A DNA stretch of 63,819 nucleotides, counting the filler, from Polymyxa betae A26-41 (Eukaryota > Protista > Endomyxa: Phytomyxea), in NCBI GenBank assembly GCA_003693705.1. It is 6 parts of 6 records of this genome, joined end to end, with 100 filler letters (N's around TTAATTAATTAA, not from the genome) between each part and the next. Parts side by side here need not be neighbours in the genome. Positions count along the whole stretch, not along the records: positions 29,418 to 36,448 come from RBZT01000142.1; 5 more parts are not named here. The stretch is one strand, 5' to 3'. The notes below the pieces were generated by a model. It did not search any database, was not told the origin of the DNA, and saw only the letters and a program-made list of their open reading frames with translations. The position numbers and the translations under genes are program-made. Each line of letters starts with the position of its first letter. Position 1 is the first letter of the stretch. Shown here piece by piece: positions 18,174 through 58,786 of the stretch.

Positions 18174-18273
18174 NNNNNNNNNNNNNNNNNNNNNNNNNNN
18201 NNNNNNNNNNNNNNNNNTTAATTAATTAANNNNNNNNNNNNNNNNNNNNNNNNNNNNNNNNNNNNNNNNNNNN
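18174..18273. other. Artificial contig linker (same linker at 29318-29417, 36449-36548, 51599-51698 and 58687-58786)
   Basis: N44-TTAATTAATTAA-N44, which places a stop in all six frames. Confidence 0.97.
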
Positions 18274-19977: not shown

Positions 19978-20202
19978 AACACATGAACTTTACGGAATTT
20001 ATTTGCAAAGTGGGATGAGCATCAAAATGGTATGAATAATTTACGGTCAGATTCTTTCGAGAAAATGATACGAAATTGTGCGTAAAAAGTAGGATGGATT
20101 TAGAGACTGGTTCAAGTAGAAAAATTGCGGGAAAAAAAATTGCGGGAATAAAAATTGCAGTGAAAAAGTAGCAGCCTCCGGAAATGACGGCACCGCGATT
20201 TC

Positions 20203-21120: not shown

Positions 21121-22335
21121 TTTCCAGAGATAATCTCGGATAGAGTCCCGCTTGCGTTTTGCAGCCTCCCCTGGTATCGCTTGTGCTTCTTCGCCATCTT
21201 CCCCCTGCCTTGCGTTGCGTCGGATGTCATCATCGTTAAGTTGGTAATCGTCATTTAGATGAATGAAAATATTGTGCAAGATGAAGCAGGCTCGAATCAC
21301 TCGCGACATCTGTTTCACTGCAACCTCTTCCGGTCTGCTGTTGCTGTTCCCGTTGTTAAGATTGCCTTTCTGATTGAGAGCGGATTTGAAAATGCGAAAT
21401 CGGTTCTTCAATCTTCCAAGGGTAATTTCAACAGGCATCCTGGTTTGAGAATGCAGATGATTATAGTTTTTTTCTTTTCTGGTCATACCATCGTGTATCT
21501 CGTATGGAATCATACAGTGGGCAAAGAGTTGATAACCCGCATCTGCAACAATCATCTTGTCATTCGGAAGCTTCTGGGCAATCCTCTGTCCGAATTCCGA
21601 TCGGTTATAGACACCTCTATCGTTTTCAGATCCCGGCCGCAAGCAATAATCTCGAATTCGCATTCCCTAATCAACGACAATCCGCGCGTTGATAGCAGGA
21701 TAGCCCTTTCTGCAGTACCACCCTTCATAATCTGCAGGTCGTTCAATCGCGATAAGGGAGCCATCAACAGCTAGGCATGTGTCGGGAAATCCACAAATTG
21801 CTTCGAAACCTTTCGACAGATCCTCCCATTCATCGAGCGCTTCAGGCAAGCGAATAAATTTATGCCCCAGACACTTAATTAAAACGCGGATAACTTGATC
21901 AATATACCGAACTGCTGACGCTTTGCTCATCCCAAAAACTCCAGCAGAGTTAACCACAGATCCTGAATGCGTTAAGTAATGCAGACAAACTGCGACTCGA
22001 TCACGATGGAAGATCCGAGCCTTATGACCGATCACAGAATTGACTGTATCCCAAGCGATTGTGATGTATCCGACAATTTTATCAAAAGACGACTTGTTAC
22101 AACGGAACTGATTCCGAAACCATCCTTCGTCGAACCATACGTTTGCATCGGCTATGGGAAATTGTGAGTCGCGAATCGACCATCCAACCGCTGCAGGCCG
22201 TCTGGACGAGCGGCCATCCCAAGAAATATCAGACACCGCCAGGACAGCAGTAGTGAGACAGCTGGTCAATGTAATTCGGACAGCAGCGCCCAAAGCTCCG
22301 ATCAAAGCCGCCACTTCGTGGTCAGATAGGTTCAT
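21115..22335 (-). pseudogene. Harbinger transposase with a single in-frame TAG
   Basis: CLAVDGSLI, YCRKGYPAINARIVVD*GMRIRD, PGSEND, IVADAGY, RMPVEITLGRLKNRFRI, LHN. TAG at 21667-21669. Confidence 0.92.
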
Positions 22336-23408
22336 GATTGGCGAAGAAATGCCGCTGTTTATGAGAAATGGACCCTCTGAGGGTCCATTAAATAATAGCG
22401 CAAAAATAGCGCCACGGAATTTCGGGGGTCGAAATCTGATTGGCTCGATTGAAAAATAGCGGTACCGCGTTTTTTACTTGAACCAGTCTCTTACGGCCAA
22501 CCCTGTTGTTTTGGTTTTTTTCTCTAATAATAAATAATGGGTATAAAATCAAAAAAATCGGTAGAAAATTTACCAGAAGAACAAATTGAAGAAAATATGA
22601 GGAAATATTAGAACTAAATGAAATTGAAAATGAAAACGAAGAATTCAATGGGGTTGAAAATGAAATTGAAAATACTGGAGAAGAATTTATTGAAAATGAA
22701 ATTGAAGAACAAATTATCTTGGAAGTGGTGCTGGTAGTAAAAGTTCTAATAAACGAGAAGTATCACAATGTACGAGAAATCAAGTGTGTCCATTTATTTC
22801 CATACATTCACGACGGAAGATCCGATCGGGACCGGAAAGGATACTCTTGACCGGAAAGGGAAGTCTTGACTCGTCGGACTGCGGGATCGATCCTCAGTCT
22901 CCTTCCGGTCAAACCCTAAAACCCTAATATTCATTCCAACAAATTACGGATAATGGAGATATAAAAAATGTGTTAAAAAATAAAAGGCAGATTCCTCAAA
23001 AACAAAAAGAACATTTGGCACGAAGCAGGGAGATTATGAAAAAGCGAGAGCGAGAGAAGGTTATGGCGAAAAATTTAACTAGTTGGCGAAGTTGAAATTG
23101 ATATTGATGAGGTTATTGAAACAGCAAGAAAATCAAAAGTAAAAACAGATTACGAGAAAATTTATGGAAAACAGGAAATAAAAAGTCCACAAAAAGAACA
23201 ATTAACTCTAATAATAGAAATTGAAACAGAAACCCCAGTAGAAACAAAAAGATATTCAAGATTACAAGATAAATTAAGCTGATTCTATATTTAATAAAAT
23301 AAATACTCAATAACATTTTCAGATAATTTTTTGTTGATGTAGTAATCAATATAAGATTTTAATATTGTCTGTTTGGTTTTTGTTTTAACACCTTTTGTAT
23401 CACAATTA

Positions 23409-25984
23409 CCGTCGCGGACATCTTAACTGTCATATATTACTAAGGGAGTAACATGATTCAACAAGGCTTGCCCGGGCAACCCTTCTGTCAATATCAAAGG
23501 CCGTTTTCGAATAGATCTCGTCGAAAGGAACAAAGCAACGGCCCCGGTTTTTTAAATTTCCAAATACTCGCGCAGTTTTAATGGTTAGTTGTAAGGGGAC
23601 CGTCGGAATGCACCAATAGGCGCAAATCTAGGTTTCTCACTAGCAAAATAAAGTGCATCAGTGTAGGGGAAAAAGTGCGCTGTCAGAAAAGTCCGGAGAG
23701 TGCGCATTTCTTTTTTAACTTGATTTTGATCATCATGGCTCGGTGCGGCAGACTTCTATCGTTCGCCATGCCTCGAAAGCGAAAGCTTTTCGCTCACCTG
23801 ACTCGAATGAATGAGGAAAGAGCTAAGAGGGCTTCTTTGCGCTCTGAGGGCGGCCCCGCCGCTGCTATTGAAATTGCAGAGAGCCAGCGTCCAGATTCTG
23901 AAGATTCGGATAACGACGAACTTCCATATTGGCCAGCCGAAGATGATACTGAGCCTATTTGCCTTTCTGATGGGGAGATCGAGTCGCTGAAGCTAAAATG
24001 GGTTCCAGAAGCGCGGTCAATTGACAGAAGGCCCCATAATGGAAATAGCCGATGGACTACCTGGAGGCGTAAATCGGAGATTCATAAGCGGGCGAAACAG
24101 ATGCACGGAAGCAAAACTTTATTTGATTTATGGAATATCAAACAATGTCCACTGTCAGCTGAGCCTGAGGATCCTGCTCAGTCTGCAATTCCTGATCCAG
24201 CTCCTGATGATGCAATCTCGAATTCATTGCGAATACTTGAGCAGACGTTTCACATCGATTCTGGCACTAGGGGCTTTGAAAAATCACTAAGAACCACATC
24301 AAAGAACGATTTTTTGAGACTGATTTGAATTTATAGATTTATCAAAGCGCTGCAGAGTAAAAGGCCTCGTGTTAAAAGTTCGGAAGATATTGCACATTCC
24401 ATTTTCCCCGGAATGAACAAGGAACGCAGAGGACAAAGCATCCGTATCTGGGCTGAATTCTTCTTGAAAGAAAACCGTCTCCCTGAAATCAATCAGGGCT
24501 GTTATATCAAGACGAAATCGATCATCGTTGACGGAAACACTCAGAATGTTTGCCGTCAGTGGCTTCGCTCGCAGAGATCAAATGCAATATCAGGTAAGAG
24601 TTTTTCTGAATGGGTAAACAGCCATCTACACACAATCATTGGGCTTCCGGTTGCCATTGAGATCAGCGAAAGAACAGCAACACGATGGCTTCATTACAAA
24701 GTCGGAGATCTATCATCCAAAGGAATGTATTTCGACGGTCATGAGCGTGAAGATGTGGTTGAGTATCGCAGGCAGTTTCAAAAAGCAATGGAGATCAACC
24801 TGCAAAGAATGCCCATTTACGAAGGGGAAAACATGGAGATTCGAACACTGCCAGAAATGCCAGCAAATACCAAGCCACTCATTATGGTTGTCCATGACGA
24901 GTCTTGTTTTCAGAGCAATGACGGAGGCAAAACGGGATGGTTTGATGAGGATCACAGACAAATCCGCCCTAAAGGTGCTGGTAAGTCTCTTATGGTCTCT
25001 GCATTTTTGTGCGAGTGCCATGGGCTACTTCGTTTGTCTCATGAACAGAGAAGCCAGAATCCTGAGCAATTATGGGATTCAAACTGTATTATCAAACCTG
25101 GGAACAATGCGGAGGGATACTGGACGAATGCTGATCTTGTGAAACAGACAGAACAGAAAGCTTTGCCAATATTTCAGATCCTTCATCCAGATTGTGATGC
25201 TTTATTTATGTTTGATAATTCAGCGAATCATCATGCCTTCGCTCCTGACGCGCTGGTGGCTTCAAGGTTAAATCTAAAGGATGGAGGGGCAAACATAAAG
25301 GTAGTAATGAGAGATGGTTGGTTTATCAGCGAAACTGGTCAGCGGATCGTCCACTCGAACAGCAATGCAGAGAGAAATCTCTGGAGAGAAGGAATGAATC
25401 GGCAAGAAGCTTTGAATCTTCTCAAGAGCCAGCCTGATTTCCTCGCGCAAAAGGAATGGCTGACCGAAACTGTGACGGCTTATAGTGGTTTCGCTATTGA
25501 TTTCTTTCCAAAATTTCATTGCGAATTTAATTTTATTGAAATGTTTTGGGGAGCTGTTAAACATTACACGCGTTAGCATTGCAATTATTCTTTTAACGGA
25601 TTGGTCAATATATTACCCTTGGCTTTATCTTCTGTTTCCATTATCCAGATTCGCCGATTCGCTCGAAAATGCTTTAGGTTGGTACTATTTGGCGTTATGG
25701 TTTTGTTTGCTTAACTTTGCATAACTGTAGATATATGGATGCATATCGGGAGAAAAACGGAGAATTTTTATCAGTTAAAGATGTGGAGCGTGCTGTTCGC
25801 AAGTTTAAAAGTCACCGAACGATCCCGCCGTGGTGGAACAGAGAGGAGCTCTAAATAAAAAACTGAGATTTTGCGTTCGAAATTTTTATTGCGATGTCAC
25901 GCAATAACGTTTTCTGCGTACGCACTTTTAGATTCAGTTTGCAACAACCCGGTCGTTTTATGACAGTTAAGATGTCCGCGATGG
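23409..25984 (+). mobile_element. Complete IS630-Tc1-mariner-type DNA transposon with TA target-site duplication; transposase disrupted
   Basis: 26-bp TIRs CCGTCGCGGACATCTTAACTGTCATA and TATGACAGTTAAGATGTCCGCGATGG, each flanked by TA. Catalytic HDES, FDNS and [13 protein letters not shown] 53-nt intron at 25678-25730 restores RKCFR-YMDAYR. Stops at about 24326 and 25574. Confidence 0.92.
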
Positions 25985-26633
25985 TATTCCTTAAAAGTAC
26001 GACTGGCAATCCGACAGAATATTGGGATGTCTTGGGTTCACAGATGACAAGCAGACAAGTTTTTAGACGAATAAACAAAAATTGGTTTAGTAAAAAAACA
26101 GAAGTAGCTGACAGTCTGTGACTGTCTCCAGTAGGTCTCGCCTGACGTGTACGAACTGTCAGGAAACAGGGCAGGATCGATCAAGGAGGCCGCTCTTAGC
26201 ACAGGCAGACGGCTGCTGTAACCTAACACAGAATATATTATATTATTCATCGTAATTAATTCGCAATGTTTATCGTAACTTTTATTTGAACGGGAGTTTT
26301 CATCGCTTTCTATAAAAATAAAAAAGGTATTGCAATCAATTGTCGAGCGCAGCCTATCTCAGCGCAGCCCGCCGGTCGTATCGGCCCACGACTCCTTCGC
26401 CCCGTTCCCGACCGCATCTCCCGAGCTGCCGCCCGGCGGCCGGAACGAGCGTCATCTTCCGACGGAAACTAACCCGACAAAGTCAAGACCCGGAACCAGC
26501 CCCGATCCCGAACTCCAACTACCCCCGATTATTTTAGAATCGGTTTGTTTTATATAAAACCCGATTTCTTGAGTTAGTCATCTTTGAGATCGCGCGACAA
26601 AACCGATTCTAAAATCGGTGCACTCTATTCACA

Positions 26634-29317
26634 ATGACAATCATTCATTCCGACCAGGAAGACGGAATTGGGGCCCGCGATTCCACTCTCCGGAATACGA
26701 TCGCCTCGCTGAATACTCGACAAACACAACTTGAGAAGGATACGAAGCAGCGTTTCCAGAAACTGCACGAAGACAACGAGATGATGATGAACATGCTCGC
26801 TGAAATGCGGACGCTCCTGGCCCCGCCAGCTGCGGTTACCGAAGAGATGGCCTCTTCCAAGCATGTAAAGCCGGATCCGCCGAGCGACACGATCGACAGC
26901 CTGCCAAAACCGACCCGGCCAGAGACCAAGACGACGCCTTCACCAACGCCTCCACCCGCCTCGACAGTCCATGTCCCGACCCCGTCTCACCGCGCACCGA
27001 CGCCCTCACATCCGGCACGACGACTCGAAAATTTGAGTTTGTACCCGGAAGAAAACCCGGCGCGGTTTCGACAATGGATCAATCGTGTTCTACAATTCCA
27101 AGACTTCTATCGTCTAGCAGATCACGATGCCATCGCCGAGCTCCAATGACACGACGGCGATATCCTGGACGAACGTCTTCGCATAATCTTGACGGCACGC
27201 CCGATGGCCTCGCTCCAGATAGTCTGCAGCTCTGCCGGCTGGCGCTGCGCAAATGGCGCGGCGCTCTTTCAACAGTTGCCGCCAATTAGACCGCGAATCC
27301 GGTTCATCGTTTATTCGACGATTCCAAACGGCCGCCACCGAATTCCGGCGTTATGACTGCCCTACAGACCAAGATCTTTACAACGCCTTTCTATCTCAGC
27401 TCAATCAAAAATATTTCGGCGAGGTACGCACCGACATCGCGGATTCTGGCTACTTGTAACAGATCGACCAACCAGCTCTCCGATTACTCGCCGATTTCGC
27501 TGCTGTTCGACAGATCGAAGCCTCTAAAGGCAAAGGTGAGAAGGTTTTCGACGAACTGACCTCCCAAAATAGGGACTCTCGCTCCTCAACATCGGATACC
27601 AACCGCGCAGCTACGGTGAATAAGGTCGGCACCAGTAATGCCAACACTTCGAACAGCCCGACCACATGCCGAACCTGTGAGCGTGCCCAACGTCCTGCCA
27701 ACCACGACTACAAACAGTGTGAGCACGCTAAGAAGAATGGCTTCTGTAAAAAGTGCAAAGTCCGAGGGCACTTCTCCTCCAACGGCTGCCCCGCGAAGTC
27801 GGCGTCCACCGTCGCTGTTGCCGATTCTGCTACTCCTTCATCCGCCAGCGATGACACTGGCGATGAGGCCCAGGCCTAGGGACACGGGGTGCTGGCGTCA
27901 CCCGACGTTAGCACCCGACAAACATGGTACCCTGGTCTCGAACCCGTTCAGTCCGTTCCCGCGTACGCTTTCGACGTCCGGACCGCCCAAGACTCGATCG
28001 CCCGCCTCGAGCTCGTCATCGGCGACCAAAACTGCGCAGCTTATATCGACTCCTGCTCGGTAGTCAATATTATGAGCGCTAAATTTCTAAAATTATTACC
28101 AGACCACTTTCAAGCCCATTATGAAGGGCAAAGCAGCATCGCTTCTCGCACAACCGTCGTCGCTTTTGACGGTTCAACGACAGTCCGCCCATCTGGACAT
28201 ATTACGTTACCCGTTCGAATCGGACCGACAACGGCGACTGACATCATATTCATGGTCTCCGACAGAGCCGCTCATCCGGTGCTGCTCGGGACGCCAGCGT
28301 TACGCTCGCTTCGACTGGTGATTGACATTGACGGTAACTGTGTGCATTCGAAATTATGTAATCAATCGTTCCCCTTAGCCAAACAGCCTACCCTGAGGTA
28401 CCTCGCGCGCCGAACCGCCGCGAACATCCCGTCCTCACAACTCTTGACATTACATTGCCTCCCTGGACAGAGACTCTGGTCGACGCCGATATCTTAGGTT
28501 TCCCAGAGGGCGCAGATAACAACAGCATAGCCCTAAAGGAGCACCCGGACGCGGCGCTGACACACCGATTGGTCGCAGCCTATGGTTATAATCAGGTTAA
28601 CTCTGCTATAACCACAGTACTAATTTCAAACCTCTCTCACGATGAAATACTGGTTCCGCGAGGTTTCCCAGTCGTTATCGCGACCTTGACAGACGAGCCG
28701 CTTCTCCTCCACGTAATGACAGCAGACGGCGCTCGAACTTCCACGACTCCAGGACGCCCCGCCGCCTTGAAACACTTGACAGATTCACAGTGGCAAACCG
28801 ACATCGACGAAATTACCTCGGCGTTAGCAGATCACGCAGACATCACGGACGAAGAACGCATGCACCTCCGTGCGTTGATTATCGAGTTCGGCGACACCTT
28901 CAAGTCGGCTATCGTACCACTGGGAGTCACCGACACCGTCGAACACCGCATCGAGCTCATCGGGAATCCACACCCACACCGCGAATCTCTGCAATTGATG
29001 GGACCCGCGAAAGAAGCAATCTGCAGCGAAAAACTTCAGCAGTTATTGGCGTCCGGCACCATCGAACCTTCTCGAAGTCCTTGGGCAGCCGCCATCGTGA
29101 TCACGCCGAAGAAGGAACCTGGACAATGGCGCTTCGCCATCGATTACCGACGCCTGAATGATGTCACGAAGTTTGACGCCTACCCGATGGCGCGCGCGGA
29201 TCGCGGGCTGGAACTCCTGAACGGCAGCACGTATTTCACGACCATGGACCTGGCCAGCGGTTTTCATCAGGTCCGTATGACAGAAACTTCAAAGGAACTG
29301 ACCGCTTTTCAAACCTC
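26634..29317 (+). mobile_element. Ty3/gypsy element 5' half: gag (CCHC knuckles), aspartic protease, dUTPase-like spacer, RT start
   Basis: CRTC...H...C and CKKC...GH...C knuckles, AYIDSCS, VLLGTPAL, IEPSRSPWAAAIV, WRFAIDYRRLND, MDLASGFHQV and TAFQT. Stops and frameshifts present; runs into a linker. Confidence 0.92.
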
Positions 29318-29417
29318 NNNNNNNNNNNNNNNNNNNNNNNNNNNNNNNNNNNNNNNNNNNNTTAATTAATTAANNNNNNNNNNNNNNNNNNNNNNNNNNN
29401 NNNNNNNNNNNNNNNNN

Positions 29418-29992
29418 AACGAGTGTTGAAGTATCTCAAGGGAACGACCGGCCACGGACTTATGTACGACTGTGGGAGGCCGAGCGACAAATTCACACTT
29501 TATGCTGACAGCAGTTTCGCCGACGACAACTCCGATCGGAAGTCCACTACTGGCTGGATCGCACTAATGGGCAGTAACGTTATCTCATGGCGTTCCGTCA
29601 AGCAAAAATCAGTGGCGCTATCAACCACCGAATCTGAATATATGGCCTGTTGTGATGCCAGCAAGGAAGCGATCTGGATTCAAAATCTACACAAAGAACT
29701 GATGGACGGCGAAAGTAAACCGGCGACGATCTATCAAGATAATCAAAGCGCTATCTTCCTCGCGAACAACAATGCTGTGAAACGACGAACCAAGCATATT
29801 GATTTACGCTATCATTTTCTGCGTGATCAAGTTCACAACGGAAAAGTCAAGATTGTTTATTGCGAAACGCAGAATATGACTGCCGACATCTTGACTAAGC
29901 CATTAGGCAAGCATTTATTCCAGAAACACCGAGCCAAACTTGTTTCGGCCGAATCAACTGCAGAAATGGACGTTGATTTCGAAGAGGCGTAA
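29418..29992 (+). mobile_element. Ty1/copia RT end and RNase H
   Basis: YADSSFA...RKSTTG, ISWRSVKQKSVALSTTESEY, YQDNQSAI, RTKHIDLRYHFLRD and ADILTKPL. Confidence 0.95.
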
Positions 29993-30141
29993 TAGGAGAA
30001 GTACGACATCAACACCCAGTTTCAGAGTTATTCTCGACCCGATCCACTAGATCGGGCGGTTCGTTTATCAATACACTTCCAATTTTACTACTTTCCTGGC
30101 TGACCAATATTTGAGAGCTACGAAGTCACAAATCACGCTCT

Positions 30142-30216
30142 GTCTGAGTGGCGCAACTTGGTCAGCGCGTTCGGCTGTTAACCGAGAGGTTGTGGGTTCG
30201 AGTCCCACATTTGACG
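30142..30216 (+). tRNA. tRNA-Asn(GTT), variant copy
   Basis: Cloverleaf with anticodon loop CTGTTAA and T arm GTGGG-TTCGAGT-CCCAC, followed by oligo-T. G7:A66 mismatch and one extra D-loop T relative to the second copy. Confidence 0.88.
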
Positions 30217-31285
30217 TAATTTTTTTTCTTTGCAAGATGAAAACGCTCGAAGCTCGCGATTGGCGTTCTAAGATTTCTCTCGTAACCCTTCTCAGAAACC
30301 TTTGACGTTTTTTTTCTTTCCTTAGCTGCCGATTGCTGACCAGATATTCTCCATGACGAAGCCAGACTATTACTAAAGCCATGGATAACTGCTAATTGAC
30401 GTACAAATGAATATTTAACGATAAACATCGTGTGATACACAGACAGAGTATGGCCATTTTTTGAGCTGACTATTCTGCTTGAAATGCGCTGAGTTACGAG
30501 ACTTCTGATGTGGCGCAAACATCCAAGAAGAATGTCGCTCGAAGGCGATCTTGAATGCCGTTTGAGATCGTATTTGAATTTCCGAGAGCCGAATTTAAAT
30601 GCAGAGACCCCAGTAACAGCTAATGTTAATAAACTGATATCATCTTCGAAAGCGGTTCTTAAAGCAGACAGAGGAAGTGTATTCTCCTTTTAAGAACGCA
30701 CGTTCTCACTACATTTCCGGGCTCCACCGTTTTTGGCGCCATTACAAGCCAAGCAAAAAGTATCGCTTTGGCTCAAAACCAATAATTCTGGGGGAGTTGA
30801 TGGATATCATCGAAGAATCTTGCCGATTCGCCATAAAAATCTATGAGCCTACGACTGCGACTGAACTCAATCACAGCCGAATTCCGCTTCCCAATTCAAC
30901 ATGAGCTTCAGTATTGACAATAGAATTTTCACAGGTCAACCAGTTATACAGCACTGCCTGTTGAAACTTTGATGAAAATCAGCGAGCTTAGTCAAATCCA
31001 ATCCAATCAACCAATCTTTAGAAGCCTGAGCTCGGATAGCATTCGAAACCTGTCGTTTATTACGTTTCTGTCTTTTAACAGCAATTTGAAAGATGCCCCG
31101 GATCATCCCTGTATGTCTGTTTCATGGCCATGTAGTTTTATGCTTAAACCAGCAATTACACAAATAAGACATTGTATATAGCGAGTAAAAGGTGAAGATG
31201 CGATCGGGTGTCTCGATCACATATCTGTTATTGATGAATTTCACATTTCAGCTGCTATTTAGTCTTGAAAAGAGGAAAGGAAATG

Positions 31286-32387: not shown

Positions 32388-33919
32388 ACGAATATGTTTT
32401 ATTGAAAATGAATTAGTAATGGAGCGAACCCATGCAGGGGATTGTGTGTGGCATTTTGGTCAGCGAATTGAATGTCGTTAATTTCGCATGGAAAACTGCA
32501 GTGCTTAGGAAAGGGTTAGGGTTTCCGCTGAACAATTCTCATCCTTCATCTCGCCCGATGTCGTTTGATTATTACATGGTATTAGAGTAAGAAGCGCCGG
32601 GATAATGATTCTATTGTAAAATTCGTCTGTAAGGATGGCTTGGGATAAAACTTCTGCCTCTCACAGATGCTTTGATTGCTACATCCCTCTCAAAACATGT
32701 TTATAGGCAGGACTCCACTTTATCTGTATCAACTTTCATACGATAAAGTTATTGAAATAGCGGAAGATGAGGTAATACTACAATTTAATCGAGATTGCAA
32801 CTTTTCTACCGAAACGCTAAGACGGAAATGTTCCGGATATTCCGTATTTGTAGCAGCTGCTACTAAATTGACTGTACGACAGACAAAATATTTTCTCCCA
32901 CACTATCACTTTATCCGTTAATCCGAACAGAATTGAAAAAGACGGATTTGATGGGCGCATTAGAGAGTTAGAAAATATAAAATGGCCTTGGATTGGCCTT
33001 CTTCTCGGCACGGACTTTTGCAACTTGGCCTTCGATTGGCCTACCACAGCTCAAATGTCCTTCAACGCCAATTAGCCTTCGTTTACTTTTTTGATTCTGT
33101 ATTGGCCATAGACTGGCCTATAGAATTGGGTCTGTATTTTGCAATGGTTACAATAATCCTTGATTGATATCACTTGGATTTCCATTCTGCGGCCGATTGT
33201 TTGTCGACCTTCGTTTGCTGCAACGATAGAAATTTGTACCGGTTGACCCAGCTTTGTTGTGGACGTACATGAATCCGTCAATGGAAACGGAGGGATTTCA
33301 TGGGTCTCTCATGAGCAGAATGAAAGAAAAAAATTTGCGATCAAAAATCCTACTGCGGAAATGTCTTGATTTTTTTCTGACTATGTACAAGTCATATTTA
33401 TGTTTCATTAATACAGCAGTTTGCGTGGGACGGAGCTGTCGTGAGTATCGTAGCCCAAAGTCATGCCAATTCCTGAGCATAGGCCAATCTAAATCCAATA
33501 GGCCAATCTAGATCCAATCAGCAACCAGCAGATAAAGACAAAGTCTCTATTCAACCGTTGGTTAAACTTTGATAAGGGACAAGACACTTGATTAAATGGC
33601 GAAACACGCAAATTAGATTTCTTTATCGATAATTATCGGCATAAATCGCTTTTGCTCTTTTCATGGATATTATGGGATTAGAGTGATCTCCGGTGTCGGT
33701 GGGATGCCGGGTTGGACATGGACGCTCGCAATTCCTATGGCGCTGTTGGTGTAGGCGAAGTAGCAGCAGAGCAGCCGAGTTTGGTAACTAAAACATGGTG
33801 CTTAATTTGCCAGATTTTGAGAGCATTTGTAGGCGCTACTACTGCTTAGATCGTAAGATAGAAGTTGAGAGGGGGGTAGCACATGTAGCAGGGTCGTTTT
33901 GTGAATCCAGAAAAATGAA

Positions 33920-33993
33920 CGTCAAAGGTGGGACTCGAACCCACAACCTCTCGGTTAACAGCCGAACGCGCTGACCAGTTGCGCCACTCAGAC
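33920..33993 (-). tRNA. tRNA-Asn(GTT)
   Basis: GTCTGAGTGGCGCAACTGGTCAGCGCGTTCGGCTGTTAACCGAGAGGTTGTGGGTTCGAGTCCCACCTTTGACG, followed by a T-run. Confidence 0.93.
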
Positions 33994-34556
33994 AATTTTG
34001 ATGTAGATAGACTGGAAAAGCATTCCATTGTCTTTCCTAAAGGAGAAACTACTTCTGTCCGGCGACAGATATGCGCAGCTGCGCATCTGTCGCTCTGCCT
34101 CTCTCGTCAGTTGATCGGTCTGAAAATGTGGCGAATTGCAAAGGTTCTTGGGTGGCAGACGCCGAGTATACCAGAAGACAATGCCGCTGACGACAGCGAA
34201 GACGATCTGGCCTGTACTTGGTCTGATGATCTGCTATATTCCAAGGATGCGCCCGCGAATCCATCCGATCTAAGGGGAAACGACTTCGAAGAGGATGGTT
34301 CCTTCGCCATTAACATTCCTTATATCTCGCAATCACTATTCCGACATTGCATCTGAATATCGTCTTTTTATCTTTTGATTTTGATCTGCACACTGCAAGC
34401 AGCATATGTCAAATGAAAGATATCACTGTGTATTCTACGATTTGCTACCAGCGATATCATTGCAGCTGCAATGATATTCTTGCTGGTATGTGACCGAACA
34501 CTGGCATATGTAGCAATAGCAGCACCCAGAGATGAACGCCATCTTCGAATCTGATT

Positions 34557-34678
34557 AGTAGAAAACCAGAGTGTCATTTTCAGAACTCAAACCAAAAAAT
34601 GACGCATTATAGGGTCTTATAACGTGTCATTTTTAGAATTTATTCTCAAAAATGACGCATTAAAAGACCTTTTAATAC
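34557..34678 (+). repeat. Left 122-bp inverted repeat flanking Rep, followed by a 40-bp tandem duplication (34639-34718)
   Basis: Reverse complement of 35529-35650 with 3 mismatches. Built of palindromic modules. Confidence 0.95.
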
Positions 34679-34730
34679 TTTATTCTCAAAAATGACGCAT
34701 TAAAAGACCTTTTAATAGTGGAGCCTGCCG

Positions 34731-35535
34731 ATGATGACGACCGCGGCCAGACCTTTTACGAATAGGACGCGTTCGATGATATTCACGTTGCATGTGAATC
34801 AAGAGATTACGCTTGACGGGAGAAATCTCGGTCCCGCGCCTATTCCCGGGATGCCCTGCCCCGAGAAGGTTGTGCAAGCCTTGCCGCACAAGTATCTTGT
34901 CTACGGACGTGAGGTGATCGTGAATTGGGCCCATCCTTAGATCGGTTTATTCACATTCACCGCAGATGGCTCCCTTCACCGGCGCGTTTCATTTGCAAGG
35001 GTACATTCAGCACAAGAATGCGATCTCGTTCAAATCGTTTCACAAGAAACTTTATCCGTACAAGGCGTGGGTTCAAGTAGCGTACTTTGACGCACAAGTC
35101 AACCGCGCCTATTGTACGAAAGGTGGCGATTTCTACGAGAGTGGTACCTGTCCGACGAACGGCGGTGCTACGGAAAAGGCGAGATGGGATACAGCGCGCG
35201 AACTAGCTGCTGCCGGGCGCATCGATGAGATCGATTCCCAGCTCCAGATCAAGCATATCCGCAACTTCGAGCGTATTGAAGAGCGGTCGATGTTCAATCG
35301 GAAGTTGCCGCATCTGAGACAGACTCGGAACGTCTGGATTTGCGGCCCGACCCGTCGTGGAAAGTCGTCGGTCCTGTCGCGTCTGTTTCGTGAAAAGGAT
35401 GTTTACGAAAAGATTCAGAACAAGCACTGGTGCAGTTATCGAGGCCAGCCCGTTGTTCTGATCGACGACGTGCACAGGAAAGGTTTCGGGTCATGGGCGC
35501 TCCATTTTGTCAAGCAGTGGACGGATACGTATTAA
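34731..35535 (+). CDS. rep: CRESS-DNA virus-like Rep (HUH endonuclease plus SF3 helicase), spliced, C-terminally truncated
   Basis: Motif I FTLH, motif II HLQG, motif III YCTK, Walker A GPTRRGKS and Walker B IDDV. Removing the 52-nt GT-AG intron 34914-34965 gives YGRE-MAPFTGAFHLQG and an open 250-aa frame. Confidence 0.93.
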
Positions 35536-35650
35536 AAGGTCTTTTAATACGTCATTTTTGAGAAAAAATTCTAAAAATGACACGTTATAAGACCCTATAA
35601 TGCGTCATTTTTTGGTTTGAGTTCTGAAAATGACACTCTGGCTTTCTACT
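35529..35650 (-). repeat. Right 122-bp inverted repeat flanking Rep
   Basis: Starts with the palindrome GTATTAAAAG-GT-CTTTTAATAC, which supplies the Rep stop codon. Confidence 0.95.
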
Positions 35651-35813
35651 CTGGGGCGTGGTTTTTGAGTTCAATTTTCAAAAATGACAACAGATTAATC
35701 CGCCCATTCTCATAGATTAATCCCTCTCAATCCGCCATTTGTAATTTTTTAAATCATATTTAAAAAATGACAATATATTACTATGATATTTATTTATAAT
35801 AATCCTTCTATTT

Positions 35814-35950
35814 TCGTGCCAGGCAAACCCCCTTTCGTGCCAGGCAAACCCCCTAAAATGCCAGGCAAGAGTTCCTAAAATCGGCGAAAAATGCCATTTT
35901 CCCATACAAAAATGACCTCGTGCCAGGCAAAGCGCTCGTGCCAGGCAAAA
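35814..35950. repeat. Cluster of five (TCG)TGCCAGGCAA motifs
   Basis: Direct repeats near 35814, 35835, 35859, 35918 and 35936, within AT-rich DNA. Confidence 0.8.
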
Positions 35951-36866
35951 TCAGCGAAATCGCACAGAATAAAAATTTTTTATATCACTTCCACGTATTC
36001 ATAAAAATATCAATCAAAATAAACCCACCGGCCCACCATGAATTAAATGGATAATGTTCATGGGGATGATAATGGGTAAAAAAATGAAGACCTGCCCCAG
36101 AATTGAACCCATGGCGTCCATAGTATAGATGAATAGGTCTCCCAACTGACCTATTCTTAGATATATCTCTTGTTAGCCAGAAAGGCAGGGTTGCGCTATC
36201 TCGGCCGCCTCCGACGGAAGTGACGTCAACCGCCAAGGCCATCGGAAGTCGGAACTGATTGAATCAACGCCTTAGGCTACGATACGATTCTTGTCTTGAA
36301 AAATAAAACTTCCACTTCTTCAGTGAACACATTCTGTTGACAACTATTCCTCTCTCGGTAGAATCCTCGTCGTCTAACAGATTAAGAGTCCCAGCGCTCT
36401 CGAACATGGTCACTACAAGACGCGGAGCAAACAATCAGGGCGCAGATGNNNNNNNNNNNNNNNNNNNNNNNNNNNNNNNNNNNNNNNNNNNNTTAATTAA
36501 TTAANNNNNNNNNNNNNNNNNNNNNNNNNNNNNNNNNNNNNNNNNNNNTAAGAACAGCGCATCTCAGCCGCATTGTATTCACTATTTGGTTACCTCGTCC
36601 GAAGACAACCTGCTTGGACATCTTGATGAATGGGATGAAGTTGATGCACTTGATAGACGCTTACTCATGAAGATAATGGGAAAGTTAAACAGCCCTTTTT
36701 TAACTTTCAAACAGAAATGCCCGTAGACTAGATCTAAAAATGCGAGAAAGAGGATCATAAAGTATTAGACAAAGTGTGAGCAAGAGGATTCTTGAAGCAT
36801 TAGAAAATGTGTGAGAAAGAGGTTTCCTAAAGTATTAGAAAAAGTGCGAGAAAAAGGACTTGTATC

Positions 36867-38276
36867 GGGAAACTACTTCTGTCTGTCGACAGATGCGCGG
36901 GCTGCGCATATGCGCCACCCGACAGATGGCGCAGCCTGCTGTCTGTCGGTTCGCAATGGCGGCGAATCATCTTGCTAACATACAAACCATTATAGTGATT
37001 ATACGACATCAGTTCTACACTGGTGCATGTAAAATTACGCTCAGTTGCTTGCCGTCGCGTTATTCCATAATAACTCAATATTGTATAGGGTTTGGACAGC
37101 TCAGTGATCAGTTCAACATTAAAATGATTTCTGCAATTTATGAAAATCCAATCAGTGAACAGCTGCAACGACCACTACAGTCGTGCGAAAGCAAATACGC
37201 CAGTAGTTCAAGTGCATTGACCTTCATTCAGAAGCTGAATTCTAACAGGGAGAAAGTGTGCGGGGCTCATACTTCCAAACATTTCACTGCGAAAACAGTG
37301 GGCAGTTTCCGGGCAGATGGGTCAAACTCGAGAATCAAGGGACGACGATTCTGTCAAGAATAATTGGGAACTGGAGTATCGACTGTCTTATTAAAACAAA
37401 CGTTATCAGGGTCTGTGCTGTGAGCGATGAGACTGTCGCTACCTGGAAGGTGACATCGACCACTGGTGCGGTTCCGAGCTTCATGCGATTGTGATTCCTT
37501 CCGAAGCACCTACATCCCCTGTCGTCACATTTGTTCTGTGGTAATTTCAAGTCAGATCGATTCTTTCCATGTATTTCTTTCTGCGTTTCAAAAATAGTTA
37601 GCTGACACGGACTGACAGGTTTCGCTTCTGTAGATTTCTTAGAAATCTATTTGTTCTTTATTTTCTTACATTATTTTTGCTCGGATCGAGAAGAGTAATC
37701 TATATAAAAAAACACTTCTGCTATCTGACTATCTAGCTGGTTTGTGAACCTGCTACAGCTTCTATCAAAAATGGATGGCGTCTCTGTAACCATCTCTCTA
37801 TTATTTAGCCTGTCAAAGACTACAGCTTGTTCGTTCTGGTGCCGTTCCCAATAAAGAACCAGACGATAGATATTTGTCAACTCTCAAAAGAATCGACCGC
37901 GACTCAGCAAAAATTCTACATTAGCCCGTTCTTTCAATAAAGGATTGGATTGGATTGGATTTGACTAGTTCGTTGATTTTCATCAAGTATCAACAGACGG
38001 TGCTCTCTCCTAAGCACATGGCCTAAAGTACACAAATGGTAACTATAGGAGCTCCTACTATCCATTTCGGAGCGGACATTATTTCACCCGCTTTCAATAA
38101 AGTCATATTGAAGTCTAAGAGGCATAGTGTGCGAAGACTGCGAACGTCTACCAGACAGAGCCAGATATATACCAGAGAGAGGGAGAGAGGAAGAGAGGGT
38201 GAGAGAGGAAGAGAGGGAGAGAGAGAGAGCCACGGTACCGCTGCGCATATCTGTCGACAGACAGAAGTAGTTTCCC
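36867..38276. mobile_element. Non-autonomous Mutator (MULE) element with 9-bp target-site duplication
   Basis: TIR GGGAAACTACTTCTGTCTGTCGACAGAT at both ends. TSD ACTTGTATC at 36858-36866 and 38277-38285. Internal remnant HFTAKTVGSFRADGSNSRIK is MULE-transposase-like. Confidence 0.92.
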
Positions 38277-38416
38277 ACTTGTATCCTGGCTGGATGTTTC
38301 CCAACAATGTTCTAATTACAACCTCGGAGTGCGCGGCTACTAAGTTTACATCGCCTCTTCGAATGTTCCATCACATCTGGTTCTAAGCATCGGGGCCCAC
38401 AAGTCACAGCTCCATC

Positions 38417-39325
38417 ATGACATCTGATTCTATTGAGGACCCATTCGCCGTGTTTGACCCCTCAAAGATCATAGAGGTCGTTTTCAATCAGGCCTCATGC
38501 AGTGATGTAACATTACAAGTTAATGGGACTTCCTTTCACTGCCATCGTAGCGTTATTACTCCAGTGAGTCAATATTTGGAAACGTACATCGACTGGGATT
38601 CGAACAATCATGAAGTTGAAACGAAATCGAAATCGATTGTCATGATCGATCTGCCCGAGGTTCGGCTTCCTGACGGATTCTCCTCTCTAAAGAGCCATGA
38701 TACTGTTTCCTGGTTTGAAAAGTATCTGAAGTTAGTGTATGGTTTTTATAAGCCTCAGAAGGAAGACATTAATGACCTAATCGCTCTCGCCCAAATCGCC
38801 GATTATATGATCTCTCCATCTGTTATGAACTTGTGCGATCGTCTGCTGTGCTCCGCCTCCCTCAATCTGGACAATATTCTTGGTATGGCAAAATTCTGTC
38901 AACGGTATTCGCTGGCAAAGACATTTAAATCTGTCAAGAAATTCATTGCTGTTAATTTGTTCAAATTGCACCAAAACCCTCAGCTGTACCACCTGGAGAG
39001 GGAGCATTTTGGCGATATTCTGAAATTGTCAGATCATAACTGTGCTTGGACGTTTTGGATTTTGCTTTGTTTTGCATCAAGTGTGGTTCCCATAGACAAC
39101 AGCATTCCTTCTAAACTTTACATCAAAGGACCTGAAATGGTCGAATTCTTCCGGGCTGCAGTTTTCGACCTTAGTCAATTGTGGGATCTTCGCACAGTTG
39201 ATTCTATCTTCAAGGGTCTCAATTCTCGCATTGTGATAATCGATGCAGATGGCTTTGATCCACAATTTCTATGCAAAAACATTGCAGCGTGCTATCAGCG
39301 CCTGTGCCACCAACACGACGGTTAA
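38417..39325 (+). CDS. BTB/POZ (plus BACK-like) domain protein, 302 aa
   Basis: SDVTLQVNGTSFHCHRSVI...SQYLE, FEKYLKLVYG, LAQIADY...LCD and KKFIAVN. Confidence 0.85.
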   Translation: MTSDSIEDPFAVFDPSKIIEVVFNQASCSDVTLQVNGTSFHCHRSVITPVSQYLETYIDWDSNNHEVETKSKSIVMIDLPEVRLPDGFSSLKSHDTVSWFEKYLKLVYGFYKPQKEDINDLIALAQIADYMISPSVMNLCDRLLCSASLNLDNILGMAKFCQRYSLAKTFKSVKKFIAVNLFKLHQNPQLYHLEREHFGDILKLSDHNCAWTFWILLCFASSVVPIDNSIPSKLYIKGPEMVEFFRAAVFDLSQLWDLRTVDSIFKGLNSRIVIIDADGFDPQFLCKNIAACYQRLCHQHDG

Positions 39326-40149
39326 AAACAGAGAATCGCCTCTTGACAGGCAAATTCTCAATATCTTCATAGAATTAGAATTGTGGAATCAAAGAATACA
39401 ATCCATATTTACAATCCATTCCATTATTTGCCGTGCATCTTCTGCTACATGGGCCTTACAGCAATACAGCCAATTTGCTCCCGTTCTGGAAGGTCGCTCC
39501 AGTCAGGGCAATTTAGAGTACAATAAGCGCTTGGAGATCGTTCGATCGGTTCCGGAAATATCATCTGTTACTGAGAGAGTGCAGAAAATTGCTGGTTCGG
39601 GTTGGATTGTCGCGAGCGACAACAAAAGCCCAAACCTTAAAACCCTTCAGGTCATGAACAGAGAGAGGCGCCGCCTCTCGAAACTGATTAGGAGAGGAGG
39701 CCGCACCTGCACAGCCTCTTGAAACCGATGAGGAACTCAACTTTAGTGCGGCTTCCTCAGATGAAGCCGCACCAGCGCAGCCTCCTGAAGTGGTCGAAGA
39801 GGCTGCTCCAGTGCAGCCCGCTTTGGAGGCCGCTCCCGCCACCGCAGCTGCTCCCACTGGCAGCTTTTCTACCAGACCAATTTCATGGTAGTAGCGTGCC
39901 TGCCAAATGTCTGTCTCTGTTGGGTTTTGGGCCAGCTCCTTATTCAGTCTTTCAGTAATAGTGTCTCTCCTTGGTTTTGCAGAAGTTCCATGTTGATTCG
40001 TATAACTGTAATCTAAGCCCTAGCGTGTAATGGTTTCAGTGCGACTCCATAACGAACTTGAATGCGGGATTGAGGCGGGGAATCTTTTCATCATAGCCCA
40101 AAAATAACAATTTATTAATATCGTTCAGTGCATCTAACTATGCAGAGGG

Positions 40150-41084
40150 TCACCAATTGTCAGCAGGGTGATCAAGCCGATAATAACAGTCACTGAATAT
40201 CTTGAAAACAAATGCTTGATCGCGGCCTGGTCCACCAAACGGATTGTCGCCGAAGCGATCGTTGATCGACTTAACAATGTTGTTCAGATCTGATCGATCC
40301 CAATGGAGACTGATCTCCCGTACAACACTTCGGAACAGGCCTCTTAATTTAGCATCTTTAATAAATCGCTGGCAATTGCCATTTCCGACTGGAACTGGTC
40401 GAGTCACATAACAATAAACTGTAAAGAACTGCCAGTACTTGTCCGAAGAGGGCAATTTCATGATAACGGCAAAATTCTCTTGTTGAATTTCGTACAGCTT
40501 CGGGATATTAGAAAGCTGGTGAATCTGGCTTGCGATGTATTCCTTCACAGACAGAAATGTGTTAACAAGAGGATATTTCTGACAGAATAAGGCCACATCC
40601 AGAACATTTTTAGTGTTGAATGAGATCGAGTTCAAATTATCATCACATAATTTCGTCACGGAATCACATACAAGATAATCTGCGATCTGGGCCATGGCGA
40701 AGACCTCGGAGTGGCAACAACTATCGAGGTCGCTTAAGCCATACACGATTTTCAGAAATTTTAAAAAACCAAAGCAGTGCTGTGGGATTGCTCGCCCTTG
40801 AAGGGTTCCGGTATATCGATATCACGAATATCGATTTTAATCAGCGGTTTGGAGCCTTTTTCTGAAAGCGTGATGTTGGATTTTGATGGAGACTAGAGTA
40901 GAAACCGCTCCACATAGTCACAGCTGGGGACCAGTACGGCCCGATGACCGAAGTACTTGGTCCCATTGACCACCAGAATCAGGTCACTGCTGGAGGCAAG
41001 ATTGAACAGAGCACGGACGGTCTTAACAGCATTGAGCACGGCGCCCTGTCCGGATGTTTTGAAGGATCCTTTGAGGTTGGACAT
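40150..41084 (-). pseudogene. BTB/POZ paralogue 2 (stop and frameshifts)
   Basis: SDLILVVNGTKYFGHRAVL and AQIADYLVCDSV. TAG at about 40893 where paralogue 3 has TGG. Confidence 0.8.
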
Positions 41085-41410
41085 GATGCAGAGATCGTCC
41101 GATGTCGACGCTCGATGTTGTGGAATGACGCTTCGAGACTAGTCGACTCACGGACTCCGAGCAGCCACTCAGACAAATCTTAAGTTCGACTCTGCTATAT
41201 ACTCGACAGGTCTTCTGTTGTAAGTCCAACTCATCACCAAACGCGCGAGCATGGAGGTGGGCGGCTGCCCCCTGAGATAGAATCAACCTGAGCCCTTAGC
41301 GTGTGATCGTTTCAGCGAGACTAGTTTTGCAAACTTGAATACGGGATTAAGGCGTGGAATCATTTCGTCAAAGAGAATAACAAGGAATTTATTGATATCG
41401 TTCACTGCAT

Positions 41411-42357
41411 CTACCTATTCAAAGGGGACGGATTATCAAGCCGGTAGTAACAATCGTTCAATAACTTGTAGAGAAATGCTTGATCGCTGCTTGATCCACC
41501 AAACAAATTGTCGTTGGAGCCTTTGTTGATCGTTCTAACAATGTAGTTCAAATCTGATCGATCAAAATGGAGACTGATCTCCAGTACCACACTCCGGAAA
41601 AGCTCTCTGAATTCATCATCTTTGATGTCTCTCAGGAGACTGAATCCATGGCCGACGGGAACTTGTCCTGTCACATAACAATAAACTGTAAATAACTGCC
41701 AGTACCTGTTTGACGACGGCAATTTCATGATATCCGCAAAGTTCTCGTTTTGAATTTCGTACAGCTTGGGGATATTAAAGAGCAAGGGAATCTGGCTTGC
41801 GATGCATTTCTTCACAGACTGAACTGAAATGTATTAACAAGAGGATATTTCTGACAGAATAAGGCCACATCCAGAACATTTTTAGTGTTGAATGAGATCG
41901 AGCTCAGAATATCAGCACATAATTTCGTCACGGAATCACAGACAAGGTAATCTGCGATCTGGGCCTTGGCGAAGACGTCTGCCAGGCAATCACGATCGAG
42001 GTCGCTTAAGTCGTACAAGATTTTCAGAAATCTCTCAAAGAAAACCGCAGTGCTGTGGGCATGCTGGCCCTTAAAGCGTTCCGGGACATCAATATCAGGA
42101 AGATCGATTTCAATCAGCGGTTTCGATCTTTTTTCTGAAGGTTTGAAGTTGGATTTTGATGGAGACCAGAGTAAAAACCGCTCCACATAGTCACAGCTGG
42201 GGACCAGTACGGCCCGATGACGGAAGAACTTTGTCCCATTGACCATCAAAATCAGGTCACTGCTGGAGGCTTGATTGAACAGCGCCTGGAGGTCTTAACA
42301 GCAGTAATCACGGCGCCCTGTCCGGATGTTTTGTGAGATCCATTGAGGTTGGACATG
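41411..42357 (-). pseudogene. BTB/POZ paralogue 3 (frameshifts), tandem duplicate of paralogue 2
   Basis: VNGTKFFRHRAVLVPSCDYVERFLL. Nearly collinear with 40150-41084, including the 3' flank. Confidence 0.8.
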
Positions 42358-43390
42358 ATGTAGAGTGATGAGGAATGACGCGTCAAGACGGNNNNNNNNN
42401 NNNNNNNNNNNNNNNNNNNNNNNNNNNNNNNNNNNNNNNNNNNNNNNNNNNNNNNNNNNNNNNNNNNNNNNNNNNNNNNNNNNNNNNNNNNNNNNNNNNN
42501 NNNNNNNNNNNNNNNNNNNNNNNNNNNNNNNNNTTTCACGCTGCAATTCGTTATGTGACGAGTGAGGTCCCTGACTGGCAAGGAGCCGATTATACTCGCG
42601 CTATTCATGATGGCGATTCGAGGGAGCTCTACCAAGCTGCTCTACCAGAAGTCAGTCTTCCTCGAAACCTTTTTACCTTGAATATCATTGTAGAGTCTGA
42701 GCACAAAGCGGACAAAGAGAAGGTTTTCAACGGGTTTTCACAAGATCAAGATTGTAAAAACTTCAGCGAGTGCTTTTTGAGGCTGAATCACCAATCAAAC
42801 ACTGACCAACTTTCCACTTCATAATTCAACTGTTACACATTTCAATGCATTTTCGACTGAAGAGGAACATTGCTGAAATCTGCACACAATCAAGCACAAA
42901 CGGAAAAAAAATTGAGCGAACTTTTCTGGTTCCTGAGTACTTCTCTCAAATCACGAAACACTTATTTGCATGAGCAGCCTCTGCTTGGAATCTCCAATTT
43001 TGTAAGTTCGTGTGGAAATGCTCTTTTGATGAAAGATATCTGAATTTTTATCGAATGTTTTGATACTTTGGACTCAGGTGATCGGAATCCATTGGTTTTG
43101 TGAAGACAGAGGGTGGAAATCGCTCTATGTTGAGAAACTCTTGATCTAGGTAGAACTGAAAGCCTTTTAAAGCTATCGGAGCCAGCGAATTGAAAAAATC
43201 GAAAACGGATCTAAAAACTCCAGAAGCATAATATGGAGATTCAATTGGATTCATTATTGGACGATCGCCTATCGTATCATAATGACATTTTAAGGGATCA
43301 TGGTCTATGTCAATGCAGCACGAACCCCTGATAGAGAAACAACGAAGTTCAGGGCCGTAACTTGATTCGTTACAGCATCGTCAGCAACAG

Positions 43391-44438
43391 TTGGAAATAC
43401 AGAGATACGTGAAAGCAAATATTCACCATTTAATAGACAGGCGGACTGATAAAAACCAACGGATGAAATTAACCCAGGCAATGAATTATAAGGCGGCGGT
43501 CGGCCACCTGATATGGCTGCTTCATGCACGCCCGGATATAGCATATGCTGTCGGTGAAGTTGCCCGATTTGTTGACAGTCCCGGCCCTGCTCACTTCGTC
43601 GCGCTCAAACGAATCTTTCGTTATCTAAGAGGAACGACGCGATATGGTCTCTTGTTCAAGAGAGAAGGAGAGTGCGCAAAATTCTCTCTCCACGGATATT
43701 GCGACTCCGACTGGGCAGGTTGTGTCGATACTAGACGCTCGACTTCAGGTTTCAGTTTCTTCGTTAATAACTGTCTTTATCGATCAAAACGACAACTTTC
43801 CACAGCTCTGTCTTCTTGCGAAGCTGAAGTTCTTGCTTCGTCTCTGGCAGCTACCGAAGCCCTTTGGTTGCGTGATGTGCTAACTGAACTAGGTTTCTAT
43901 TCGGGAGGTCCTGTTTCTTTACATCAGGACAATCAAGGAGCTATTGCTTTTGATCTAAGTGAAGTTCCTCACTCAAAAATGAAACACATAGCGCTTCGCC
44001 AGAGCTTTCTTCGTGAACTTGTTTCTAATAATGTTCTTCTTCCGCTATATGTTTCCTCTGCAGACAACAATGCTGATTTCTTTACTAAGGGCCTAAATTC
44101 TTCACGATTTATTGATCTTCGCGAACGGATCGGTTGTATTACTCGTCCCGCTGCATTTGAGGGGGGGGGGAGTTGAGTAGTCTCATGCATCGTGACTCCT
44201 GATGTGTCACGTTTCTATTTGTTGCAAAGTCTCTGATCTATATAAACATCATCTTGTATTTCGCTAACTTTAACAACATCTTTGTCTTAGAATCTCTAGA
44301 AACTTAGTTCCGTGTAACTCCCAGCTCTGTGAAGTATGTTAAAGAATGTGGTGATGCTCTATAATTTGGCTCTTTTCTGATAAACTCCTTTTTTCTATTG
44401 CAGATTTTTGACTATGAGCCTGTGAGGTTGTCTCAACA
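43391..44438 (+). mobile_element. Ty1/copia 3' end: RT end, RNase H, polypurine tract and 3' LTR (44171-44438)
   Basis: RPDIAYAV, GYCDSDWAG, RRSTSG, ALSSCEAE, DNQGAI and ADFFTKGL. G-run PPT. LTR ends AGTTGAG...CTCAACA. Confidence 0.92.
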
Positions 44439-53300: not shown

Positions 53301-53582
53301 AATAACTTCGAAAGAAGAACAAAAAACACGAGTTTTCTCCATAGTAAATTTAGGACGGCACTTGCAAATCTGCAAACTCTTCCGAGAACAAACTGACTTT
53401 GTCGTTTTTGAGCTTATTAGATTGGCACAATCTGAAAAGCGACAAAAGCCGAACGTGGCGACTATGTATTATATCATGATGGGAGAGTTGGCGAATAACG
53501 GATTACTGTAGAGAGATGAGCTACGGGGATACAATTGCGTCTATAGGAAACCCTAAATAGGAATCTGCGACCGATTCACACA

Positions 53583-58680: not shown

Positions 58681-58786
58681 CAGGAANNNNNNNNNNNNNN
58701 NNNNNNNNNNNNNNNNNNNNNNNNNNNNNNTTAATTAATTAANNNNNNNNNNNNNNNNNNNNNNNNNNNNNNNNNNNNNNNNNNNN

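Follow-up and report, generated by a model that had tools for sequence, protein, structure and literature searches.

A single-copy, truncated CRESS-type Rep gene lies between multicopy hairpin-array arms in the genome of Polymyxa betae

The window analysed here, a stretch of 63,819 nucleotides from Polymyxa betae A26-41, is gapped and transposon-rich and includes a repeat-rich 7-kb contig (29418-36448) on which a CRESS-type Rep gene is enclosed by two inverted arms. The left array (34557..34719, plus strand) belongs to a multicopy hairpin-array (foldback-like) element built of ~53-nt units with GTCATTTT..AAAATGAC hairpins, and contains a third, duplicated unit, with a perfect 40-bp tandem duplication at 34639-34717. 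Its portion at 34557-34678 pairs with the right arm (35529..35650, minus strand), an inverted copy with 3 mismatches over 122 nt (97.5% identity), as the initial annotation had described, and the inner hairpin of the right arm provides the stop codon of the Rep gene. The description of these repeats as hairpin-rich also holds, in that their folding surpasses that of 200/200 shuffled sequences (z -3.9 for the left arm and -3.6 for the right). Four copies of the hairpin unit are present in the window as against 0 matches in 100 shuffles, and 10 of the 11 window matches to the exact arm motif are at the Rep locus, with 1 elsewhere. The arms are A+T-rich (GC ~0.29-0.30), whereas the 809-bp insert between them, a single-copy CRESS-type Rep fragment (34720..35528, plus strand), has a GC content of 0.53. 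The word TATTAA is present at both inner junctions.

On the right-hand side the array goes beyond the 122-bp match, a point missed by the initial annotation, and the right repeat is for this reason not a clean terminus. Related units recur outward of the right arm at 35688 (in register, at a spacing of 54 nt), 35771 and 35916, as part of a multicopy continuation (35651..36170, minus strand) comprising more diverged units of the arm hairpin motif and short direct repeats. The single-contig depth of this region relative to Rep is 7.8x over 35692-35826 in sequencing run X1 and 6.2x over 35712-35847 in run X2. It is succeeded by an LTR-like repeat (36171..36406, plus strand) with TG..CA ends and then a TGG primer-site-like word, the ends being the basis for its probable identity as an LTR; this repeat shows ~7-10x single-copy depth, and contigs of X1, X2 and X4 start at 36171 after other DNA. 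The right-hand context thus ends in the LTR-like repeat, followed by an N-run gap at 36449. Because related units extend outward from the right arm, the 122-bp match is not proven to be a pair of termini, and for this reason the missing TSD is uninformative. At the 122-bp ends only 3-4 nt match, at shifted offsets and among 49 offset pairs, with the true right end undefined; the word TCTG was rejected as a TSD, being shifted, asymmetric and drawn from the same 49 offset pairs. A Helitron-type end was likewise rejected, as the sequence reads no CTRR at the arm end. On the left, the flank (34436..34556, no strand assigned) is part of another repeat, with loose contig ends at 34436-34446, 34493 and 34547. 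A paralogous contig of run X3 continues past the end of this flank without an arm, and this arm-less continuation, a candidate empty site, was not found in the window. Pfam searches with five short frames flanking the element yielded nothing significant.

There is neither a capsid ORF nor room for one between the arms, the nonamer NANTATTAC is absent from 34400-35900 with none in a hairpin loop, and no inverted copy of the Rep sequence exists at the locus. The first two of these absences, together with that of a credible TSD, had been noted initially and were upheld; an intact CRESS-DNA provirus or episome is rejected in view of the missing capsid ORF, the want of room for it and the missing NANTATTAC. 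Searches with the arm patterns returned 0 matches in metagenome contigs and 0 in viral contigs. With long, modular, inverted arms that are multicopy and enclose variable cargo or none, the unit has the build of a foldback or Pack-type TIR element. No partner transposase was found for the arms, and since this is combined with the lack of a TSD we have not placed them in a superfamily.

The Rep gene consists of exon 1 (34731..34913, plus strand; 61 codons, with motif I), a 52-nt GT..AG intron lying between motifs I and II (34914..34965, plus strand) and exon 2 (34966..35535, plus strand; 189 codons, with motifs II and III, a linker, and Walker A and B). Its ATG at 34731 is the 12th base past the left array end at 34719, and its frame of 250 codons closes with a TAA, ending at 35535, within the right arm; both placements agree with those first reported. 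The translation displays the rolling-circle motifs I (MIFTL), II (HLQGY) and III (YCTK) along with Walker A and B, and Pfam recovers Viral_Rep (E 8.8e-6) and RNA_helicase (E 4.5e-7) domains, which corroborates the original reading of an open, spliced 250-aa Rep. The sole PDB match is a circovirus-type Rep (PCV2 Rep, 7LAR; E 4.5e-9). The protein hence has all the motifs of a Y1 HUH endonuclease, but of the SF3 helicase it has Walker A and B only, with no motif C or arginine finger. From its sequence, the predicted product would keep the HUH nickase domain and would have no working SF3 helicase. The intron is omitted exactly by one X3 contig (depth 3.9) and retained by the contigs of X1, X2 and X4; this is modest evidence for a spliced Rep transcript, as X3 is a run of unrecorded kind and contributes one such contig.

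Truncation of the Rep at its C-terminus, immediately after Walker B, is a second feature that the initial annotation had missed. The frame ends W-T-D-T-Y-stop right after Walker B, and the match to the helicase profile covers positions 1-61 of 105, as compared to a coverage reaching 104-105 in 3 of the 4 relatives scanned; in the other, P0152, it extends to 62 only, with a weak E value. None of the 131 relatives having the corresponding word shows a Thr before the final Tyr, and the bases of this Thr codon lengthen the inner hairpin of the right arm, on account of which the arm probably supplied the last Rep codons as well as the stop. A 5' truncation is also possible: the frame is open to the junction, with 4 codons upstream of the ATG, and the N-termini of the relatives are longer. 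A HMMER search of 1.84 billion representatives gave 3103 matches at E 0.001 or better, from which the best 150 were aligned together with two from another search. In this set of 152 (the best 150 of 3103 plus two), 140 relatives extend at least 50 residues beyond the window stop (median 81.5) and 4 stop within 10 residues of the end of the window Rep. In the same best 150 of 3103 plus two, motif-C-like words occur beyond the stop in 143, arginine-finger-like words in 133 and both in 128.

In a FastTree phylogeny of 189 exon-2 columns, rooted at the midpoint and with unnamed sequences only as references, the window Rep clusters with P0001-P0004, P0151 and P0152 (support 0.94), and its identity to full-length Rep-SF3 proteins is 45-55%. 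The five full-length members of this closest clade possess 165-254 extra residues, including a Cys-rich stretch. An Atlas look-up of P0151 led to clusters of Cressdnaviricota that carry no family name. Among relatives with DNA, the closest is L004, a 1954-nt metagenome contig (53% identity over exon 1, E 7e-25; 51% over exon 2). Its Rep gene is full-length and interrupted at 320-372 by a GT..AG intron of 53 nt, placed inside motif II as judged from the reading frames. Neither a long inverted repeat nor the arm motif occurs in L004, and because the contig is incomplete it is unable to show the genome ends of the lineage. More generally, the arm motif is absent from 5/5 related loci. Scanning viral contigs with the window Rep recovered three distant circular genomes (L001-L003; 34-35% identity), scans of viral contigs with four clade queries recovered nothing, and a word-indexed protein search with exon 2 gave 0/69 candidates.

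Several further observations concern the relatives themselves. The full-length Reps of the clade (P0001, P0002, P0003, P0151 and P0152) have called lengths of 327-564 aa, and three clade Reps are on contigs of 5.3-6.0 kb, which is large for CRESS viruses. The Cys-rich extension following their helicase has no Pfam match and is possibly metal-binding. Introns of 52-53 nt with GT..AG borders occur in two members at different sites, before motif II in the window Rep and inside it in L004, which suggests independent intron gains in one ssDNA-virus lineage; the proteins P0002 and P0152 are called without interruption. The look-alike clusters of P0151 in the Atlas include one of 128 proteins that are mostly eukaryotic, are found most often in Rotifera and share no common Pfam family; PMC6431247 mentions rotifer elements that bear a Rep. 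L001-L003 are 3.3-kb CRESS-type contigs with nonamer words, and L001 has a terminal repeat, indicating circularity, and a second gene of 563 aa.

Copy number and junctions were assessed using contigs of four sequencing runs (X1-X4) mapped to the region, with Rep copies below 85% identity escaping detection by this procedure and some records being filtered out. X1 and X2 are DNA runs from different studies, containing 84% and 77%, respectively, of the words of the region, and X1 may be the source sample. The depth over Rep is flat, at 180.7 in X1 and 12 in X2, equivalent to 0.97x and 0.81x of unique flank contigs; the Rep body forms a single contig per run, starting 30 nt before 34720, and neither X1 nor X2 yielded a further Rep copy at 85% identity or above. 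The arm bin reaches 78x (X1) and 35x (X2) of the Rep depth; as these values are sums, raised by overlap among contigs and by the mapping of both arms to the one bin, they establish that the arms are multicopy but not how many copies exist. At least three left-to-right arm joints in X1, one of them common to X2, skip 911-973 nt and could alternatively reflect repeat units that are arranged differently. In X2, a joint on the opposite strand is read as a left arm that ends at 34719 and directly meets the start of a right arm, i.e. an element without the insert; it comes from a single contig whose short side has 32 letters, and agrees fully with the start of the Rep contig only if that copy has a point difference. 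At least four X1 contigs exit the arm at 34719 into DNA unlike Rep, and an X4 contig has the arm starting at 34557 after a different flank, the other arm copies with their flanks and cargo being visible only as short contig ends. The left inner junction is crossed by contigs of three studies (X1, X2 and X4). Contigs reaching across the full insert and on into the right arm exist in X1 and X2, and X4 continues through the right junction for 32 letters; the insert is nearly unchanged across samples of these three studies. For the outer junctions at 34557 and 35650 no bridging piece is present among the pieces listed, and some flank positions are represented by a paralogous allele only.

The Rep insert is therefore single-copy, cut after Walker B and terminated by a stop codon from the arm, and the arms elsewhere are joined without Rep or with other DNA. 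The initial annotation had proposed a novel HUH-Rep mobile element with ends that serve as Rep substrates, and had looked to several arm-Rep-arm copies in different flanks for its support. In X1 and X2 the Rep depth is that of one copy (at 85% identity or above), which speaks against such copies; with the Rep both unique and truncated, and the repeats present without it, the proposal is unsupported. What we find is instead the arrangement it had named as its refutation, a single-copy Rep locus with the repeats recurring elsewhere without the Rep, and the best-fitting of its options is a viral fragment captured by a foldback-type element. We accordingly favour, with a probability of roughly 0.7, the view that a truncated CRESS-virus Rep fragment was pasted between multicopy hairpin arms as passive cargo, probably during break repair.

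Under this proposal, a virus from an unnamed lineage, one whose Reps are long and contain introns, would have infected what was probably a protist host. Long, nearly spacerless palindromes tend to break at their centre, and a foldback-like element, which would be a near-perfect palindrome when empty, may have broken or undergone gap repair at this point, whereupon end-joining or a template switch could have copied in 809 bp of internal viral DNA present in the nucleus. The arm hairpin would then have written the last codons and the stop of the inserted Rep. As the arms are so alike, the event is likely to have been recent, and being recent it would have left the frame and splice sites not yet decayed, with low-level spliced RNA probably still being made. 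Any movement of the unit would proceed via a transposase supplied from elsewhere. An open frame and a spliced contig would also be expected of a functional gene, and internally deleted copies of an autonomous element would similarly retain the two ends while lacking part of the gene. A young neutral frame, in turn, can stay open: at 1.2-2.5% divergence we estimate its survival at ~0.13-0.36 with indels, or 0.44-0.66 considering stops only, and selection is hence not required for the open frame. Of the earlier suggestion that the gene is young or selected, the first part is supported by the likeness of the arms, and the second we reject as a necessary cause, as neutral survival suffices.

Foldback elements are of modular TIR build. 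The locus resembles them, and also Pack-MULEs as described in PMC6431247, where gene-fragment capture by TIR elements is said to be common, in having non-autonomous inverted arms of tandem subunits, a 1-kb gene fragment and many cargo-less copies. It differs from them in that the cargo is viral, that no TSD or partner transposase was found, and that the right array exceeds the 122-bp match. A further parallel comes from Tuber melanosporum, where the available text of Liu et al. 2011 (PMC3198968) describes a geminivirus-like Rep inside a TIR element with no obvious TSD, present in 42 copies with 37-bp TIRs, an interrupted Rep and two transposase ORFs, and also reports endogenous Rep fragments inserted into transposons. 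Both cases, to the extent of that text, present an ssDNA-virus Rep between TIRs in a eukaryotic genome, without an obvious TSD; unlike the Tuber element, the one in the window has one copy, arms of 122-163 bp made of hairpin arrays and no transposase, and its Rep is non-geminivirus, spliced and cut by the arm. Endogenous CRESS-DNA virus Reps and the PCV2 Rep (PDB 7LAR) share the HUH-SF3 layout and motifs with the window protein, whereas its clade is unnamed, with a Cys-rich tail in the full-length members and short introns in two members. Particular to the present case are the hairpin-array arms, a single spliced insert at the apparent centre and the unnamed Rep clade. A literature search, which left most subscription papers outside its scope, found no description of the locus or the Rep clade.

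In the available text of Craig 2023 (PMC10288648), Replitrons use a Y1 Rep with a second domain but without a helicase or SF3 domain, have short direct terminal repeats and usually no TSD, and their non-autonomous copies outnumber the autonomous ones. Going by this description, they share with the locus a Y1 HUH Rep related to CRESS Reps, a spliced gene, no working helicase and many non-autonomous copies, and are set apart from it in that the window protein is a CRESS Rep proper with half a helicase, between long inverted arms. We reject a Replitron on the basis of these arms, the partial SF3 domain and the full Rep-SF3 proteins that are its nearest relatives, the comparison being one of descriptions and not of sequences. 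A Helitron (Y2 Rep with an SF1B helicase, over 1,500 aa) is rejected as the window Rep has 250 aa, is of the Y1 type and has an SF3 domain.

The Replitron precedent nevertheless lends some appeal to an alternative in which a Rep-driven transposon family has the arms as its ends, and the copy in the window is either an internally deleted derivative of an autonomous element or a helicase-less Rep transposase that nicks the hairpins and mobilises the short copies. The intact HUH motifs and linker, the open and spliced frame, the hairpin-array ends without a TSD, TATTAA at both inner junctions and the excess of short non-coding copies over the Rep copy all suit such a family. We consider it unlikely, given that X1 and X2 lack a second Rep copy at 85% identity or above despite young arms that are 97.5% alike, that the gene is cut in mid-helicase with its stop inside an arm, and that the nearest relative (L004) is full-length and without such ends. 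Moreover, no nonamer lies in a hairpin loop, the arm also continues into other DNA from that same junction (34719), and the ends of Replitrons, as described in Craig 2023, are short direct repeats and not inverted ones. By the same token we have little faith in a bolder version, an HUH transposon at birth, in which a helicase-less, spliced CRESS Rep would nick the hairpin arrays and mobilise the palindromic family, with the centre acting as a fixed cargo-loading site.

Truncated geminivirus Reps can confer resistance, and it is conceivable that the captured fragment is now kept by the host, with the spliced, helicase-less Rep guarding against related viruses in a dominant-negative manner or through RNA silencing. 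The open frame, the one spliced contig and the almost unchanged insert in samples of three studies would fit this; a young neutral insert accounts for the open frame equally, and the spliced form amounts to one contig of depth 3.9 from X3, a run of unrecorded kind, leaving such a role improbable. Less credible still is a linear Rep replicon, or a defective viral DNA of the snap-back type that became integrated, with the arms as its own origin repeats, as might be imagined from a Rep flanked by hairpin-rich inverted ends and unaccompanied by a capsid gene: the arms are scattered over the host genome beside other neighbours and, unlike the insert, are A+T-rich, their motif is missing from all five related loci and from the viral and metagenome contig scans, and the Rep sequence has no inverted copy. 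A clade virus lacking the arm repeats would weigh against it further, and is partly supplied by L004, which is incomplete. Finally, an assembly or amplification artefact fusing viral DNA to a host repeat, as the short, repeat-rich contig with its unbridged outer junctions and flank positions seen in a paralogous allele only might hint, is highly implausible for the inner junctions, where the chimera envisaged initially is contradicted by contigs of three studies crossing the left junction and reaching the right arm, by insert-spanning contigs and a depth equal to single-copy host DNA in X1 and X2, and by the origin of X2 and X4 in other studies even if X1 is the source sample.

If the capture of a viral fragment is the correct explanation, the locus offers a clean picture of how viral DNA recently entered a eukaryotic genome via a fragile palindromic repeat. 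It would also link an unnamed, intron-bearing, long-Rep CRESS clade to a probable protist host, thereby aiding host assignment, and would leave the classification of transposons unchanged. Were the Rep-driven family real, it would show a CRESS Rep becoming a transposase, a step proposed for the origin of Replitrons.

Elsewhere in the window, the runs of N around the TTAATTAATTAA linker (18174-18273, 29318-29417, 36449-36548, 51599-51698 and 58687-58786) separate parts whose adjacency is not established. The Rep contig additionally carries two near-identical, inverted tRNA-Asn(GTT) genes, at 30141-30217 (plus strand) and 33919-33994 (minus strand), and Rfam detected tRNA only over the window. 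The copy at 33919-33994 has ~9x single-copy summed depth with other neighbours, and may for this reason be a tRNA-derived repeat. A repeat of 31-35 nt recurs at 34045-34079, 36867-36926 and 38240-38276, with internal inverted symmetry at 36867-36926, and possibly represents the ends of another small element. Decayed frames at 3874-5111, 5877-7605, 18814-24328, 26613-29992, 43361-44176 and 59405-63711 have translations suggestive of Helitron, non-LTR, Harbinger-like, Gypsy and Copia elements. An uninterrupted frame of 839 codons at 53547-56066 (GC ~0.60 as against 0.44 around it) encodes a DExH helicase with dsRBD domains, whose best matches are protist and dictyostelid RNA helicases (35-46% identity), followed by RIG-I- and Dicer-like proteins; these best matches point to a protist-like host. 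Tandem BTB-domain gene paralogues, spaced ~1270 bp apart and 80-90% alike, occupy 38387-42294.
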